From Promethearchaeia archaeon (GTDB lineage: Archaea; Asgardarchaeota; Lokiarchaeia; Sigyniarchaeales; SOKP01): DNA of 64,000 nt. Positions within the stretch are counted from its first letter, which is position 1. Each line of letters begins with the position of its first letter. Shown here one piece after another: positions 124 through 49,606 of this stretch. Under the pieces are notes generated by a model, which made no database searches, was not told the DNA's origin, and worked only from the letters and a program-made list of their open reading frames with translations. Position numbers and translations under genes: made by a program. The stretch is taken from NCBI GenBank assembly GCA_029856125.1, contig JAHQWJ010000007.1, positions 1 through 64,000 of the forward strand. The letters run 5' to 3'.

Positions 124-1416
124 ATGCGCAAACGCAAATTAAATGAAATTGAATACTTAAACTGGCTTATTGGGCAGCCTTATAATATATGTATGGCTAT
201 TACAATTAAAGGGCATTTAAATAATGACTTACTACGGAAATCTTTAGAAAAAGTCCAAATAAAACATCCTATCTTACAAGCTCGGTTAGATGTGGATAAT
301 GAAGGACAACCTTATTTATTTTGGGGTCTTGAAGGTCTAATTCCAGTCGAAGTTATACCCCGAACACACGATGATCTCTGTAAGAAAATCGTAGAAGAAG
401 AATTTAATATCCCGTTTGAAACAGGTGTTAATAGCATTTCTCCATTAATCAGAGTTAAATTATTAACTTCAGAATCTCTCTCAGATATAGTTATAACCAT
501 ACCTCATGTTATAGGAGACGGTATGTCAATGCTATATCTTTTCCGGGATCTAGTTCTTTTTACGGTGAGTCCTAGGAAAAAAATTAAACCTCTTGAAGTA
601 ATAATGAATGCTGAAGATATTTTACCATTTTCTTATCGGAAAAAGATACCAAAAACTGCGAGAAAATTTAAAGCATTGGTTTGGCTTATTATGAAGCTGA
701 TAACCTTTCGAAATCTTTTTCGGAAAATCAAAAAAAAAAAATCAGAGAAAAATAAACCTAATATTGTTGATAGCAAGCAAAGGAGTCTTATAACTCGTGA
801 TTGGGTTTTAACTCTAGAACAATCGCAAACATTAATTAAAAAATGTAAAGAAGAAGGTGTAAGCGTACATAGCGCGTTGTGTACAATGTTCTTATCAGAC
901 TTCCCTGCAATATATAACGCTGTTAATTTAAGAAAGAAATTAGCGTATCCCGTAGGAGAATCTGTGGGGATATATGCCGGAAGATTAGAGGTAAAAGTTA
1001 AATACAAAAGAAGATCATCTTTTTGGAACACCGCTCAATTATATCATGAAAAATTAGTAGAAGGGCTGAAAAGTGAAAAAGTATTTAAAGTTTTTAAGTT
1101 AATTACGAGAAAAGTTCCATTTGAGGTATTTGAAGAGTTAATGTCATTAGATACAGCAGAAAGTAATCGTATTTGGATCACAAATCTTGGTTCTCTTGAT
1201 AAATTCAATGAACTCATCGCATCTAAAGGATTCATTATAAAAAATTTGTATGGAGGTGTTTCGCCAACTACCGGAGCGATCTTTGTTCCAGTTTTTACAA
1301 TAGATAAGAAAATCCATTTTCAATTGCATTGTTTAACACCACCTCATACAGAAGAAAAGATAGAAAAATATATCAATAACAGTCTTACTCAGTTAGAAAT
1401 AGCTCTTAATAATTAA
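124..1416 (+). CDS. Condensation-domain / CoA-dependent acyltransferase (PapA5 / alcohol acetyltransferase-like)
   Basis: HxxxDG catalytic motif (PHVIGDGMS), KHPILQAR, CKEEGVSVHSAL, ITNLG. Confidence 0.8.
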   Translation: MRKRKLNEIEYLNWLIGQPYNICMAITIKGHLNNDLLRKSLEKVQIKHPILQARLDVDNEGQPYLFWGLEGLIPVEVIPRTHDDLCKKIVEEEFNIPFETGVNSISPLIRVKLLTSESLSDIVITIPHVIGDGMSMLYLFRDLVLFTVSPRKKIKPLEVIMNAEDILPFSYRKKIPKTARKFKALVWLIMKLITFRNLFRKIKKKKSEKNKPNIVDSKQRSLITRDWVLTLEQSQTLIKKCKEEGVSVHSALCTMFLSDFPAIYNAVNLRKKLAYPVGESVGIYAGRLEVKVKYKRRSSFWNTAQLYHEKLVEGLKSEKVFKVFKLITRKVPFEVFEELMSLDTAESNRIWITNLGSLDKFNELIASKGFIIKNLYGGVSPTTGAIFVPVFTIDKKIHFQLHCLTPPHTEEKIEKYINNSLTQLEIALNN

Positions 1417-1460
1417 GGATTCGAGAAAGTTCTACTTAAATTTGTATTGTATCCTCAATG

Positions 1461-2969
1461 CTAACTATTTTCCTGCCTTAATATTAGTTCTGCTGCACTT
1501 CTTCCTGAATGTATAACTGCTGGGATGCCTGAAGGACCTGTCCAATGCCCAGCAATAAGTAATCCTTGTACGAATGGAATTATTTGCTTCCAAGATTTAA
1601 TTTGCGTATAATGCCATCCTACTGCAGCTCCATTATGGTTTAATGTGTATCGGTGCATTGTTATTGGTGTAGCGATATCAATATCCAATATGTGATTGCT
1701 TAAATCTGGGATAAGTTCTTCTGCTCTTTCAATTAACTTAAAGGCGAATTTTTCCTTCAATTTCTTATAATCTTCCCCTCTTTGTAGGTTAGGACCGGTT
1801 TTCCAATAGTCTTCGTAATCAAAGGTTGCAATGGTTGCCAACTGTATGCCATATGTGTTAGGCTCGACATTATCTGTTTTGTAATGTGGGATGGTAATAA
1901 CAAAACCTGCTTTCTCGGGATTATTGGGAACAAGATTTTCCTCTATTTTAAAGGACGATCCTGCGAAAAATTCTGATTTATTAAATCCATAGACTTCAGG
2001 ATTTATATCTAAAACAAGTGAAACTATAAAAAATGTATCAGAAAGCGGAACTGAATTAATTCGTTTTTTAAATTTACTTGGAACGAGTTCAGGTTTCAGG
2101 AACTTACAAAATGTTTGATGGGGGTCCACTGTAGAAACAACAAATTTTGATTTAAGTTCATTATTGTTTTTTAGTTTTACACCCACAATGTTCTTGTCTT
2201 GAACCATAATGTTACTAACCTCTTGAGAAAGGAGAATCTCTCCACCGTTTTTCTCTAACGCCTCAGAAAACGCTTGAGCAACCTTTTTAGCTCCTCCAAC
2301 AGGGTGGAAAGCTCTCTCATTCAAAGCAAATCCAATTAGGGCGAGCATTCCAACTGCAGAAATACCTTCTATTGGTGCTATTGAGTGGAGAGAACTCCGC
2401 AATCCCTTTAGTTCTTCTCCAGGAAATAGATCTTGTAGCAAACTTGCTGCTGACTTAAGGCCGTACCTAAAAATTCTCCGAGAATTGAGCAAAAACTTAA
2501 TTTTTGATATAAACTTCGGAAAAAAACTCAATAATTCTTGATTTTGATATTTCATTGAACTTATCTCGTGATCAATATCTAAGGATAATCGAATTAACTT
2601 ATCTAGTGATTCTTCCTTAACATTAGGAAAAGACCTTTTAATTGCATTCTTAAACTCTTCTTTATCCTTTGTTAATATAATATCAGAGTCATTTGTTGTG
2701 TTAATATAATGAGATAAAGGTTCATGAGGATCAAATTTTAAGGGTGGCATGTTTAATTCTTCTAGCGCTTTATTTACATCTTGTGGTCCAATCGTCCAAT
2801 GAGCTGTGATATCAAAAATAATTCCCTTTCTTATAAAAGACGTCCAATACCCTCCGGGGAGAGAATTTTGTTCAATAACAATTACTTTTTTACCTGCTTT
2901 AGCGAGATAAGCTCCAGCAGTTAGACCAGTAATTCCTCCTCCAATAATTATGGTGTGATAATCAGTCAT
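1461..2969 (-). CDS. Phytoene desaturase-family FAD-dependent oxidoreductase
   Basis: GGGITGL...EQNSLPGG Rossmann motif, HPVGG, ATPITMHRYT, GHWTGP-GIPAV. Confidence 0.85.
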   Translation of the reverse strand: MTDYHTIIIGGGITGLTAGAYLAKAGKKVIVIEQNSLPGGYWTSFIRKGIIFDITAHWTIGPQDVNKALEELNMPPLKFDPHEPLSHYINTTNDSDIILTKDKEEFKNAIKRSFPNVKEESLDKLIRLSLDIDHEISSMKYQNQELLSFFPKFISKIKFLLNSRRIFRYGLKSAASLLQDLFPGEELKGLRSSLHSIAPIEGISAVGMLALIGFALNERAFHPVGGAKKVAQAFSEALEKNGGEILLSQEVSNIMVQDKNIVGVKLKNNNELKSKFVVSTVDPHQTFCKFLKPELVPSKFKKRINSVPLSDTFFIVSLVLDINPEVYGFNKSEFFAGSSFKIEENLVPNNPEKAGFVITIPHYKTDNVEPNTYGIQLATIATFDYEDYWKTGPNLQRGEDYKKLKEKFAFKLIERAEELIPDLSNHILDIDIATPITMHRYTLNHNGAAVGWHYTQIKSWKQIIPFVQGLLIAGHWTGPSGIPAVIHSGRSAAELILRQENS

Positions 2970-46388: not shown

Positions 46389-48008
46389 ATGAGCATGACA
46401 AATTTAGAAAAAAAAATTTATTTTGGAGGCTCAATAGTAACTATAAACGAAAATCAACCCTTCGTTGAGGCTGTAGGAATTAAAGGAGATAAAATAGCTT
46501 CTGTGGGAACATTGGAAGTAGTTAAACTTGAAATGGGCAAAAATTGTGAGTTCATTGATTTAAAGGGAAATACATTACTTCCAGGCTTTATCGACTGTCA
46601 TTTGCACCCGATGGGTTATATAAGCCATTTATTAAATCCTGATTTAACTAATGTTAAAAGTCTAAAGGAATTAAAGGATTTGTTAAAAATTTTATCAGAA
46701 GAAACAAAAATAGATGAATTTATAATCGCTTATAATTTTAGTGAAGAAAGATTCGATGATCCGATATTACCCAATAGATGGGATATTGATGAAGTATGTC
46801 CTAATCATCCCGTTTTCATTTTACGATATGATGGTCATATTGGTATCGCTAACACAAGAGCATTGAATCTGGTAGAATTAGATGAAGATACTCAAGCTCC
46901 CGAGGGTGGTGAAATCAGAAAAGATAAAAGTGGCAATCTTACTGGTGTCATTTCAGAAAACGCGTTAAACTTAATCTTTACAAAAATTCCTACTCCAAAT
47001 GATGTAAAAATTGCTGCAGCTACTAAAAAAGGCTCTAATAATTTAGCTCAAAAAGGTTTAACTTCATTTCATGGCATCATCAACGCTGATGCTCGTTCTA
47101 AAACTAGTAATCGAAAAACAGATGAATTTTCCCTCTTTACTTCGGTTAAGAACTATTTTTTGCAGGATTGTTACACCTTTATAGAAACTAATTATCCCGA
47201 AAAAGTAATTGAATTAAGTAAAAGCTCTTTAAACGAATGTTATTCTGATAGTAAAGCAAAAATAGGAGGATTAAAACTTTATCTCGACGGTTCATTCGGA
47301 GCAAAAACTGCGTGTATGTTTGAACCCTTTACTGATGCACCGGAAGAATGCGGGTTTTGCGTAATTGAAGAAGAAGATATATATGAAAAAATGAAAGTCG
47401 CTCATAACAATAGACTTCAAATTGTAATTCACGCAATCGGAGATAAAGCAAACCGGATAGCTATGGATTTGTATAAAAAACTATTGACTGAATATCCTAG
47501 GAATGATCCCCGTCACCGAATAGAACATGCGTCTATGCTAACTGAAGATGTTATTAACGATATGTCTGAATATGGTATTATCGCGTCTTGTCAACCTCCC
47601 TTTATTAATTCTGAATACAACTGGATAGCAAAACGAATTGGTGAAGAGCGATGCAAGTATACATATCCAATAAAATCAATAGTTCAAGCTGGTGTTGTTT
47701 TAGCTTCAGGATCAGATTGCCCAGTTGAAGACCCTAACCCTATTTTGGGGCTACATGCGTTAGTAACAAGAAATTCCTTCGTCCCTGAAGAGTGTCTAAA
47801 CGTAGAAGAGGCTTTAAAATCGTACACTATTAATGCCGCATATGCCGCTTTTGAAGAAGATGTTAAAGGCAGTATAGAAGTGGGAAAATTGGCCGATTTT
47901 GTAATCTTGGATCGTAATCCTTTAAAAGTTCCAAAAGATGAAATTAAAGAGATCCGGGTAATGAAAACTATTATAAGAGGTAAAACGGTTTTTAAGATGC
48001 AGAGTTAA
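46389..48008 (+). CDS. Amidohydrolase 3 (YtcJ-like)
   Basis: PGFIDCHLH, KLYLDGS, HAIGD, RHRIEHAS, GSDCPV, GKLADFVILD. Confidence 0.92.
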   Translation: MSMTNLEKKIYFGGSIVTINENQPFVEAVGIKGDKIASVGTLEVVKLEMGKNCEFIDLKGNTLLPGFIDCHLHPMGYISHLLNPDLTNVKSLKELKDLLKILSEETKIDEFIIAYNFSEERFDDPILPNRWDIDEVCPNHPVFILRYDGHIGIANTRALNLVELDEDTQAPEGGEIRKDKSGNLTGVISENALNLIFTKIPTPNDVKIAAATKKGSNNLAQKGLTSFHGIINADARSKTSNRKTDEFSLFTSVKNYFLQDCYTFIETNYPEKVIELSKSSLNECYSDSKAKIGGLKLYLDGSFGAKTACMFEPFTDAPEECGFCVIEEEDIYEKMKVAHNNRLQIVIHAIGDKANRIAMDLYKKLLTEYPRNDPRHRIEHASMLTEDVINDMSEYGIIASCQPPFINSEYNWIAKRIGEERCKYTYPIKSIVQAGVVLASGSDCPVEDPNPILGLHALVTRNSFVPEECLNVEEALKSYTINAAYAAFEEDVKGSIEVGKLADFVILDRNPLKVPKDEIKEIRVMKTIIRGKTVFKMQS

Positions 48009-48081
48009 GACCTCCAAAAAATTCTCTAGCTAGCCGAATTTTTCCTCTAGAAAGACCTTTTTATTTAAACATATATTCTTA

Positions 48082-48143
48082 TTCCTCGCGGGAAGTATCC
48101 TCCATTAACAATAATTTTTTTAATGGAATCATCTACAAAAGAT
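48082..48143 (-). ncRNA. Eukaryote-type SECIS-like stem-loop (cis-acting element)
   Basis: Minus strand AUGAU-UCCAUUAA-AAAAAUUAUUG-UUAAUGGA-GGAU: AUGA/GA core, 8-bp helix, A-rich loop, weak GU-rich lower stem. Confidence 0.45.
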
Positions 48144-48145
48144 TA

Positions 48146-48349
48146 CTATTTTCTCTCAGCGACAATTAAATAGAACACAACTAAAATTGCAGAAACTATA
48201 TAACCCACGGCTGAGATTATATCGAATTCAATCACTCTATTACCTCAAGCTAAAATATCATTTGCCATAATTGTCCCGAAAACCCCCATAGCTAAGAATA
48301 CAGTACTTAAAGTTAGTAAGAACATAGGTAAAGCTTCTAAAAATCTCAC
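48146..48349 (-). CDS. Small 2-TM protein with in-frame UGA: candidate selenoprotein (alternatively a TGG>TGA pseudogene)
   Basis: GTG start; MRFLEALPMFLLTLSTVFLAMGVFGTIMANDILA-TGA(48247-48245)-GNRVIEFDIISAVGYIVSAILVVFYLIVAERK-TAG; SECIS-like hairpin 13 nt after the stop. Confidence 0.45.
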
Positions 48350-48454
48350 TTTCTAATCTTCTCTTTAATATTTTCTATGTATTATTATGTAAAACAGAAA
48401 TGATACTTATAAATTTTATATATAAGGGGAAAAAAAAGTGATCAAAAACGAGAA

Positions 48455-49606
48455 TTAATCTGTAAAATAAAGGTGTTCATCAAAACCAGTTTCGCTTATA
48501 AGATCTTGACCAAGCTTTTGAATCGCTTTTTTAGATGGCTTTTGTAAAATGCGTCTGCAAATGTTAACAACTTTAGTTAATTTGGCATCGGAAAAATCCC
48601 GCACAATATTATCATATCTTGAAAAATCTATTCCTGCTGTGTAAACTCCAGCACTGGAGTGGTCTGCAGATGATGAGACTTGCCAATGCTCTACTTTTAA
48701 CTCAATTTTTGAAAGTAGTAAACTATCGGTAAACCATTCAATGTACAAATCCATTCTTTTTGATTTTCTTTTTGTTGTTTTAAGTATTTTAAGCGCACGA
48801 GTTAATCTATCGGGGTGCATTTGTCTAAATACTTTCTCTTGAAGATCGGAGAGGTCATCTTTAACGTGTGCTTTTATCTCATCTAGAATAACAATTACTT
48901 TTTGCGCTCTTTCTTCTGTAATATCTTGATGAATAGTTTGTATATGTTGAGCAATTGATGCGTTTAAACCATTACTTTGATCTATCGACGTTTCTTGAGG
49001 ACTTTGCTCGGATGTAGAGGAAGTTTGTTGTATTTCCGAAGGTAAATTATAAATTTCTCTTTGTTGTAGGTTAAACAAGGCCTCTAATCTCGAAGGATCT
49101 TGTCGCACTTCGTTAAATTTTTCTTGAATATCTTCTCGAGAGTATCCCATGTTCATTAGATAAAACGCAGCGCTTGCTAATTGGTTTTCTAGTGCTTCTG
49201 CAGTGTTGTAATTACCACCACCGAATTGTTGTCGTAGTTGGTCATCTGCTACCAAGCTAATTTTTTCTTCGATTATTTCATCGAGCTTGAGATCGTTTAT
49301 TTTCGTTAAAATGTATTCTACTTGATCGCTTCCAAGATAGCTAAGATTCCCAATAGGACCAACTATATAAGCGATTTTTTCCATCTTCTTTAATAATTCG
49401 GCTATGTCGTTCTGAGATTTACCCTTTGAAATCGTTAAAAAATGTTCCAAGAAGTTTTTATTAAATCCAGCAATGATTTTAACATAGTCCTCATCGAATT
49501 TATTAAGATGATCATCTAATCCATTGTTCTGAAATTCTGGAGGTAGATTAATATTATAGACCATAATATTATCTAAAACCATGTAAACATAATCAGATTT
49601 GTTCAT
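48455..49606 (-). CDS. Hypothetical protein with internal UBA-like motif and Q/S/T-rich linker
   Basis: AAFYLMNMGYSREDIQE resembles the UBA L-x-x-MG-Y/F-x-R motif. Confidence 0.55.
   Translation of the reverse strand: MNKSDYVYMVLDNIMVYNINLPPEFQNNGLDDHLNKFDEDYVKIIAGFNKNFLEHFLTISKGKSQNDIAELLKKMEKIAYIVGPIGNLSYLGSDQVEYILTKINDLKLDEIIEEKISLVADDQLRQQFGGGNYNTAEALENQLASAAFYLMNMGYSREDIQEKFNEVRQDPSRLEALFNLQQREIYNLPSEIQQTSSTSEQSPQETSIDQSNGLNASIAQHIQTIHQDITEERAQKVIVILDEIKAHVKDDLSDLQEKVFRQMHPDRLTRALKILKTTKRKSKRMDLYIEWFTDSLLLSKIELKVEHWQVSSSADHSSAGVYTAGIDFSRYDNIVRDFSDAKLTKVVNICRRILQKPSKKAIQKLGQDLISETGFDEHLYFTD

Follow-up and report, generated by a model that had tools for sequence, protein, structure and literature searches.

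A probable membrane microprotein gene with an in-frame UGA and a Loki-type SECIS element in a Lokiarchaeia genome

Can an apparently empty gap between two genes hide a gene whose UGA codon is read as selenocysteine (Sec)? The question is raised by the first 64,000 nucleotides of contig JAHQWJ010000007.1 of a Promethearchaeia archaeon (GenBank assembly GCA_029856125.1, class Lokiarchaeia), hereafter the window, where 446 bp separate the end of an amidohydrolase gene (48008, plus strand) from a gene of 383 aa (48455-49606, minus strand). An initial annotation, made from the sequence alone, had placed in this gap a minus-strand frame of 67 codons with an in-frame TGA, followed 13 nt after its TAG by a eukaryote-type Sec insertion sequence (SECIS), and had read the whole as a new family of membrane selenoproteins. 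Here, we show that the frame and its TGA are present as described, that the SECIS has its AUGA/GA core, helix and A-rich loop, and that homologues share these features. The locus is very probably a real, unannotated selenoprotein gene in which UGA35 is recoded as Sec. That it represents a new membrane family is supported by the conserved TGA, the SECIS, a two-helix structural model and the lack of a match to Pfam or to known selenoprotein families. All coordinates below are window positions, and gene and SECIS lie on the minus strand. The window stands as contig C8 in the draft assembly (G000: 3.69 Mb, 153 contigs, 33% G+C).

The frame runs for 34 sense codons from a GTG (48349-48347) to the TGA (48247-48245), and for 32 more to a TAG (48148-48146). 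The product would consist of a first transmembrane segment, the stretch ..ANDILA-U-GNRVIEFD.., a second transmembrane segment and a C-terminal ..AERK. The GTG is the sole start common to the four closest orthologues, and an in-frame TAG one codon upstream of it closes the frame. Searches in six frames, with translation continued across stops, yielded homologues in the same genus (G007, G024, G135, G132, G019 and G140), in a second genus of the same GTDB family (G096, G114, G124 and G082) and on one metagenome contig from JGI (L072). All 12 homologues for which DNA is available, from two genera of one family and one metagenome, carry TGA in the same alignment column, in a motif [A/S]-U-G whose glycine is invariant through the synonymous codons GGT, GGA and GGG. 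This holds down to 23% protein identity to the window frame. Hence, a recent decay of TGG to TGA, which the initial annotation had kept as a caveat, is ruled out, and its question about codon 35 is answered in favour of TGA. The frame itself behaves as coding. In 11 homologous coding sequences (CDS), together 733 codons, frame 0 is free of TAA and TAG and has a single TGA in each gene, against 79 and 26 TAA/TAG in frames 1 and 2; insertions and deletions comprise whole codons, and among ten homologues substitutions are most frequent at third, then first, then second codon positions on both sides of the TGA. The order 383-aa gene, micro-gene and amidohydrolase gene is found in close orthologues only, the other homologues lying in unrelated contexts. 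The 383-aa gene adjoins the micro-gene in G007, G024 and G011 as well.

Two of the homologues have a peculiarity near the end of the frame: G132 and G124 contain a second in-frame TGA, at the place where the -ERK/-EEK C-termini of the g1 orthologues end.

The element behind the stop codon has the shape of a lokiSECIS. The study that defined this type (PMC4989117) describes an AUGA directly 5' of a 9-bp stem, a GA (rarely AA) directly 3' of it, an apical loop of 11 nt whose first five nucleotides are A and whose last is a G, mostly after an A, and a location near the point where the coding sequence ends. The element has all of these published features (AUGA, 9-bp stem, 11-nt loop, GA, location just after the stop). 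Its AUGA begins after a linker of 13 nt from the TAG and lies 115 nt from the UGA. Helix II has eight Watson-Crick pairs and a first pair U-G, so that the upper helix, which the initial annotation had thought short at 8 bp, has in fact 9 bp, the canonical length for a lokiSECIS (PMC4989117). The apical loop, AAAAAUUAUUG (11 nt, 48119-48109), has five leading A and a final G; before this G stands a U, where the orthologues of G007, G024, G135 and L072 have an A. The 3' strand of the lower helix pairs with the 13-nt linker. With AUGA and GA constrained to be unpaired, the fold reaches the minimum free energy (MFE) and shows three parts, a lower helix, an upper hairpin and a side hairpin. Folded without constraint, the 3' region does no better in MFE than shuffled sequences (z = -0.11), and the upper helix is visible in the centroid structure only; an unconstrained energy model is blind to the kink-turn. 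No Rfam family matched the whole window at gathering thresholds, and on a 601-nt stretch (47900-48500) at E <= 10 the element was left unmatched by Rfam, the eukaryotic SECIS models included; the S15 leader, CRISPR-DR17 and U6 matches obtained there are chance matches.

A covariance model built from other SECIS of the genome recognizes the element. We scanned the genome for an AUGA, a 9-bp stem, an 11-12-nt loop resembling AAAAAUnAUAG and a GA. This pattern gave a small set of elements with conserved loops and differing stem sequences, located 1-20 nt after the stops of vhuD genes, of prx-like genes and of a 147-codon open reading frame (ORF). The vhuD genes with SECIS have two TGA each and are preceded by a TGA-containing hdrA, and the prx-like genes have a UxxU or UxxC motif. 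A covariance model of seven of these SECIS with the candidate left out (R1) gave the candidate 32.4 bits (match 48138-48092; E about 1e-3 for the 3.69-Mb genome and 1.9e-5 for the window). It ranks tenth in the genome, after the seven training elements (44-56 bits) and two further SECIS, behind a TGA-bearing hdrA and a prx-like gene (41.6 and 40.6 bits). Three more elements, one behind another vhuD, score 26-31 bits, and everything else in the genome stays at or below 18.5 bits, leaving a clean gap below the SECIS; the second-best match in the window has 18.9 bits. Two comparisons suggested by the initial annotation, with a Loki-type model and with the SECIS of hdrA and vhuD in the same genome, thus agree: the leave-one-out score is well above noise, and the shape is the same as that of the elements from which the model was made.

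The SECIS is conserved along with the TGA. Behind 11 of the 12 TGA-bearing homologues R1 finds an element on the right strand with 23-42 bits; the element downstream of G019 has 16.6 bits, which is within noise. Across 13 SECIS of the family 87% of helix II is paired and six of its nine pairs show compensatory double changes, while the first pair is unpaired in 9 of 13. The helix has a covariation score of 0.417 on an alignment that was itself fitted to the model; shuffles give 0.194, with none of 500 attaining the observed value, and slid controls give at most 0.108. RNAalifold detected no covariation among four close orthologues because these are too similar. Conservation of the hairpin, which the initial annotation had made a test of its proposal, is therefore borne out by both the matches and the compensatory changes. 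Among the five closest orthologues identity amounts to 81-94% in the 80-nt 3' untranslated region (UTR) and to 73-81% in the CDS, and the UTR has the higher value in 10 of 10 pairs.

Some observations on the SECIS of this genome go beyond the locus. Each lokiSECIS that we examined, including those at loci L014-L020 of G000, bears, 2-4 nt beyond the GA, a further short hairpin with a G/C-rich loop (UGC, CGCG or CUGC), which results in a three-way junction; the available excerpts of PMC4989117 and PMC11227280 do not mention it. The SECIS of the family homologues have a hairpin of this kind behind the GA as well. One hdrA gene has a SECIS with AA instead of GA after the stem (G000:C129:11522-11568, minus strand), which is the AUGA_AA variant described for some hdrA/frhD genes (PMC11227280). 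At locus L014 (G000:C122:12046-12092, minus strand) a SECIS of 50.6 bits stands 19 nt after the stop of the 147-codon ORF, which has an adjacent pair of TGA (..HAD-U-U-ADN..) and falls outside the published Asgard selenoprotein families compared here. Further strong matches (26-53 bits) lie at C148:27114-27161 (minus), C50:19091-19137 (plus), C32:36970-37024 (minus) and C112:43974-44020 (minus) of G000, the last with UUGA in place of AUGA.

Relatives that lack Sec offer a natural control. In the genome G011 a syntenic orthologue (L053, G011:C50:14293-17361, ORF 1378-1569, plus strand) is without the Sec loop, and the remnant of its SECIS has ACGA instead of AUGA, two adjacent mismatches and no R1 match. 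As read from the sequence, the Sec codon and the SECIS have disappeared as a pair in G011. A different combination is found at L052 (G143:C9:21881-24949, ORF 1420-1578, plus strand), where the loop is deleted yet a SECIS of 26.5 bits is kept. The sole in-frame TGA of L052 lies three codons before a TAA (..DREKE-U-NF-stop), so that this TGA either serves as the stop or marks a shift of Sec into the C-terminal tail.

Several observations weigh against recoding at UGA35, and they are also those on which rival explanations would build. The support for recoding consists of sequence comparison and models. For forms with Sec, Cys or Trp we searched 400 genomes of the phylum, 5.8 billion clustered proteins and, by profile, 1.84 billion protein representatives. 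The 400 genomes and the 1.84 billion representatives contained no Cys homologue, so the locus does not have the Cys-for-Sec relatives by which selenoprotein genes are classically recognized. Non-Sec relatives have Gly at the site (MCJ7649745.1, NCBI, Candidatus Lokiarchaeota) or a deleted loop (one IMG protein), which means that the protein can exist without Sec. The orientation that we propose below for the protein draws on a modest Lys/Arg bias. Pairwise ratios of nonsynonymous to synonymous substitution rates (dN/dS) range from 0.45 to 1.4 and are near 1 in some pairs, which indicates that classical purifying selection on the protein is weak, and four database relatives have Trp at the Sec site (P0004, P0006, P0007 and P0008). 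The last two points would suit a decaying pseudogene, in which the TGA is a recent mutation of a Trp (TGG) or other codon and the hairpin is a coincidence. Yet the four Trp forms all belong to Logan/ENA contigs 545-1215 bp long, and the same database has the window's own ORF as P0002, a protein of 67 residues with W35, though its DNA reads TGA. Because of this case we interpret the Trp forms as gene calls made under genetic code 4 (TGA=Trp) on short A/T-rich contigs. P0003 and P0004 even have a second W where the G132 genome has its second TGA. The comparison for Cys or Trp forms that the initial annotation had suggested leaves its proposal standing: no Cys form was found in these searches, Trp occurs in probable code-4 calls, and the remaining forms are Gly or a loop deletion. 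The same can be said of its other sequence-based tests, which either favoured the proposal or did not speak against it. Decay is further contradicted by a TGA column that is kept in 12 of 12 homologues across two genera, by a frame that stays open after the TGA and begins with a Gly varying only synonymously, and by the SECIS behind the TGA-bearing homologues, weak as it is in G019. We hold the chances of a pseudogene to be almost negligible.

The UGA might instead terminate translation, yielding a peptide of 34 residues with one helix and perhaps a second peptide of 29 residues, with the hairpin serving L7Ae binding, mRNA stability or termination. A GTG or ATG four codons after the TGA in G000, G007, G024, G135, G114 and G019 would allow such a restart, and NCBI annotates a fragment of this kind with 40 residues (P0005). 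But G096, G124, G132 and G082 have no ATG or GTG there, and the three codons between the TGA and the ATG/GTG are conserved in frame, among them the Gly that synonymous codons keep invariant. The hairpin has the full lokiSECIS signature rather than that of a generic kink-turn, and elements above 26 bits in this genome sit behind known selenoprotein genes; moreover, the Sec loop and the SECIS core were lost together in G011. We give termination a slim chance. Finally, the UGA might be decoded as one of the standard amino acids (Trp or Cys through near-cognate decoding, or after a local change of code), a reading for which the incomplete inventory of Sec machinery would speak. No tRNA-Sec was found in the 153-contig draft with Rfam RF01852, with ARAGORN allowing introns or with a structural descriptor, four RF01852 matches of about 30 bits being tRNA-Leu. 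The only candidate for EFSec is a protein of 366 aa that, within NCBIfam, fits SelB best, with 73 bits against a cut-off of 242; of the best matches to the SelB model, the first is EF-1alpha and the second aIF2-gamma, and both were rejected. However, SepSecS is present (352 bits), as are a PSTK-like kinase of the KTI12 family and two tandem selD genes that contain a single TGA apiece, located at the known Sec site (..G-U-x-C-K-L..), and the genome's known selenoprotein genes have TGA at established Sec sites only, with the same type of SECIS. According to PMC4989117, Loki tRNA-Sec has a 31-nt intron in its T loop and is missed by standard tools, which would explain the failure to find it. The second TGA of G124 and G132, at the C-terminal end of the orthologues, fits a stop function. 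The Sec trait that the initial annotation asked to be confirmed is therefore present as far as SepSecS, the kinase, selD and the TGA-bearing hdrA, vhuD and prx-like genes with their SECIS are concerned, and it is wanting for tRNA-Sec and for a firm EFSec. The chance that UGA35 encodes a standard amino acid seems very slim to us.

In the same genome, rated 99% complete, ARAGORN reported only 17 tRNA genes with introns allowed in the anticodon loop. Probably many of its tRNAs carry non-canonical introns.

If UGA35 is indeed recoded as Sec, the gene would be transcribed from its own A/T-rich promoter and translated from the GTG at 48349, and the ribosome would insert Sec at UGA35. Judging from the identity of the element, the SECIS would direct a Sec-specific elongation factor and Sec-tRNA to this codon. 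Translation would end at UAG68 and give a membrane helical hairpin of 67 residues. We know of no SECIS adaptor protein in Asgard archaea, and this locus offers another short and simple UGA/SECIS pair with which one could test how Asgard SECIS function in the absence of SBP2.

What might such a protein do? AlphaFold2, run on an alignment of ten sequences, predicts a confident helical hairpin with U35-G36 in a loop of eight residues (mean predicted local distance difference test, pLDDT, 86). U35 and G36 are invariant in the ten homologues; counting nearly invariant positions the list is U35, G36, D43, G47, I51, A54 and Y60, and N30 is common. As the dN/dS values show, the family is fast-evolving except for the U-G dipeptide and for N30, D43, G47 and Y60 at the outer ends of the helices. 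Pfam has no family for the 67-residue protein at E <= 0.1. Weak matches to proteins of 400-700 aa in G054, G057 and G225 involved single hydrophobic segments only and were rejected. Lys and Arg are more frequent at the termini (about 35 over the ten sequences) than in the loops (about 10), and this modestly favours a topology with both ends inside and the Sec35-Gly36 loop on the outer face, which we take as the most likely one. No conserved Cys that could act as a resolving partner exists among the aligned homologues, and for this reason we propose that the selenol would act with a partner or as an oligomer. Our best guess would thus be a membrane-anchored, outward-facing selenol engaged in redox chemistry or in the binding of soft metals or chalcogens at the cell surface. 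The gene neighbourhood gives no functional clue and contains no metal-resistance genes nearby.

How does the locus compare with known systems? A SECIS-based search of Loki and related metagenomes (Mariotti et al. 2016, PMC4989117) reported only HdrA, VhuD, VhuU and PrxL, plus SPS. Huang, Xiao and Zhang (2024, PMC11227280), who compared over 400 Asgard genomes with known selenoprotein families, list seven families, and a 2026 review counts 11 archaeal selenoprotein families, none of them a membrane protein (PMC13188914). All of the published families are soluble enzymes or subunits of enzymes, and the lists were drawn up for the most part from homology to families already known (PMC11227280, PMC13188914). 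Within the literature on lokiSECIS and on transmembrane or novel archaeal selenoproteins we found no description of a two-helix family. The mechanism of recoding would thus be the known one, and the protein family appears to be undescribed. The micro-gene resembles the genes with type I lokiSECIS (HdrA-VhuD, VhuU, PrxL) in its in-frame UGA, in a SECIS a few nucleotides after the stop and in the AUGA/GA core, the 9-bp stem and the 11-nt loop AAAAA...G. Its protein, in contrast, is unrelated to the seven Asgard families and to the 11 archaeal ones: type I products are soluble redox enzymes, whereas this one would be a membrane hairpin with a single Sec and no nearby Cys.

Membrane selenoproteins are familiar from eukaryotes. 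SELENOK and SELENOS have one transmembrane helix and a disordered cytosolic tail, with Sec close to the C-terminal end of that tail. The initial annotation had pointed to them, and the likeness in layout is real: small, membrane-anchored, with a single Sec next to Gly and a kink-turn SECIS in the 3' UTR. Kinship is another matter, since the sequences are not similar (Pfam gives no family at E <= 0.1); the protein described here has two predicted helices (3-31 and 40-66), and its Sec35 would lie in the connecting loop, probably facing outward. The SECIS itself shares with the eukaryotic SECIS of Rfam the AUGA...GA kink-turn core and the unpaired adenines of the apical loop, but its upper helix is shorter and its side hairpin makes a three-way junction. 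Another parallel is with MerF and MerE, bacterial mercury carriers of about 70-80 residues that form two-helix hairpins with Cys pairs as thiol ligands. Both would be helical hairpins with chalcogen ligands at the membrane surface; MerF and MerE have Cys pairs where there is a single Sec here, and Pfam indicates no homology. We would treat this likeness as a lead for function and not as a classification.

Apparently, this is the first membrane-embedded selenoprotein in archaea, and it comes from a lineage whose Sec system is the closest to that of eukaryotes, which gives it a bearing on eukaryote origins. One might speculate that Lokiarchaeia harbour a hidden set of fast-evolving membrane micro-selenoproteins, each with a lone selenol at the outer surface and without Cys-using relatives, a use of Sec, other than as the catalytic residue of a soluble redox enzyme, that would be new among archaeal selenoproteins. 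We regard this as possible, though somewhat on the doubtful side. Such a set might serve, for example, to capture or handle extracellular metals, chalcogens or oxidants. Two homologous loci point the same way, a loop with three Sec in G140 (U-G-U-G-G-U) and a tandem triplet in G082. The loop of G140 (L063, G140:C121:10991-14188, minus strand) has three in-frame TGA (..QL-U-G-U-G-G-U-YY..) and is followed, 14 nt after the stop, by a SECIS of 23.5 bits (1437-1483). The locus of G082 (L062, G082:C99:62748-65939, minus strand) is a tandem array of three small two-helix ORFs, whose loops have one in-frame TGA each (..SG-U-GS.., ..SA-U-GT.. and ..LS-U-NI..) and which have their own lokiSECIS 5-41 nt after the stop (2020-2066, 1410-1456 and 861-907). 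A search that starts from the SECIS uncovers families that surveys based on homology miss. Such genes enter databases halved, or with Trp through code-4 calls on short A/T-rich contigs: P0002-P0004 and P0006-P0008 are full-length database proteins with Trp at the Sec site, from contigs of about 0.5-1.2 kb. This artefact could mislead tests that compare Sec with Trp.

The features of the locus are listed in the table below.

Features of the micro-gene locus in the window (window coordinates; residue numbers are those of the predicted protein)
Feature	Position	Strand	Basis or remark
Amidohydrolase gene	46389-48008	+	Pfam Amidohydro_3; convergent to the micro-gene
383-aa gene	48455-49606	-	Upstream of the micro-gene and co-directional with it
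A/T-rich TATA-like box TATATATAAAATTTATAAG	48406..48424	-	Sequence; 64-75 nt upstream of the GTG
Leader AAAGAGAAGATTAGAAA	48350..48366	-	Abuts the GTG; holds the frame-closing TAG
Probable selenoprotein CDS, 67 residues	48146..48349	-	GTG start, UGA35 predicted to be Sec, UAG stop
Helix 1, residues 3-31 (predicted)	48257..48343	-	AlphaFold2 on alignment A4; hydropathy
Inter-helix loop, residues 32-39 (ILA-U-GNRV; predicted)	48233..48256	-	AlphaFold2; Sec35-Gly36
UGA codon 35	48245..48247	-	TGA in the same alignment column, 12/12 homologues with DNA
Helix 2, residues 40-66 (predicted)	48152..48232	-	AlphaFold2; conserved F/Y-D, G47, I51, A54, Y60
Whole SECIS	48073..48146	-	Lower helix, kink-turn core, upper hairpin and side hairpin form a three-way junction; constrained fold and model R1
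AUGA, 5' half of kink-turn core	48129..48132	-	Invariant in all SECIS of alignment A2
Upper hairpin	48100..48128	-	9-bp helix II 48128-48120 / 48108-48100, loop 48119-48109; centroid structure, family covariation
GA, 3' half of kink-turn core	48098..48099	-	Sequence
Side hairpin UUCC-CGCGA-GGAA	48082..48094	-	Separates the core from the 3' strand of the lower helix

The 383-aa protein encoded upstream has no Pfam match above threshold. Between that gene and the GTG, the element that the initial annotation had noticed upstream of the frame is indeed there: TTTATAAG, at 48413-48406, 64 nt upstream of the GTG. A TATAAA-type box is similarly placed in the orthologues, and the A/T-rich TATA-like box is probably the micro-gene's own promoter, to judge from its sequence. 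An Rfam match to U6 at the leader AAAGAGAAGATTAGAAA is at chance level. This 17-nt leader is almost identical in G007, G024 and the metagenome locus L072, and over 40 nt the leaders of the orthologues are 78-90% identical, against 73-81% for the CDS.

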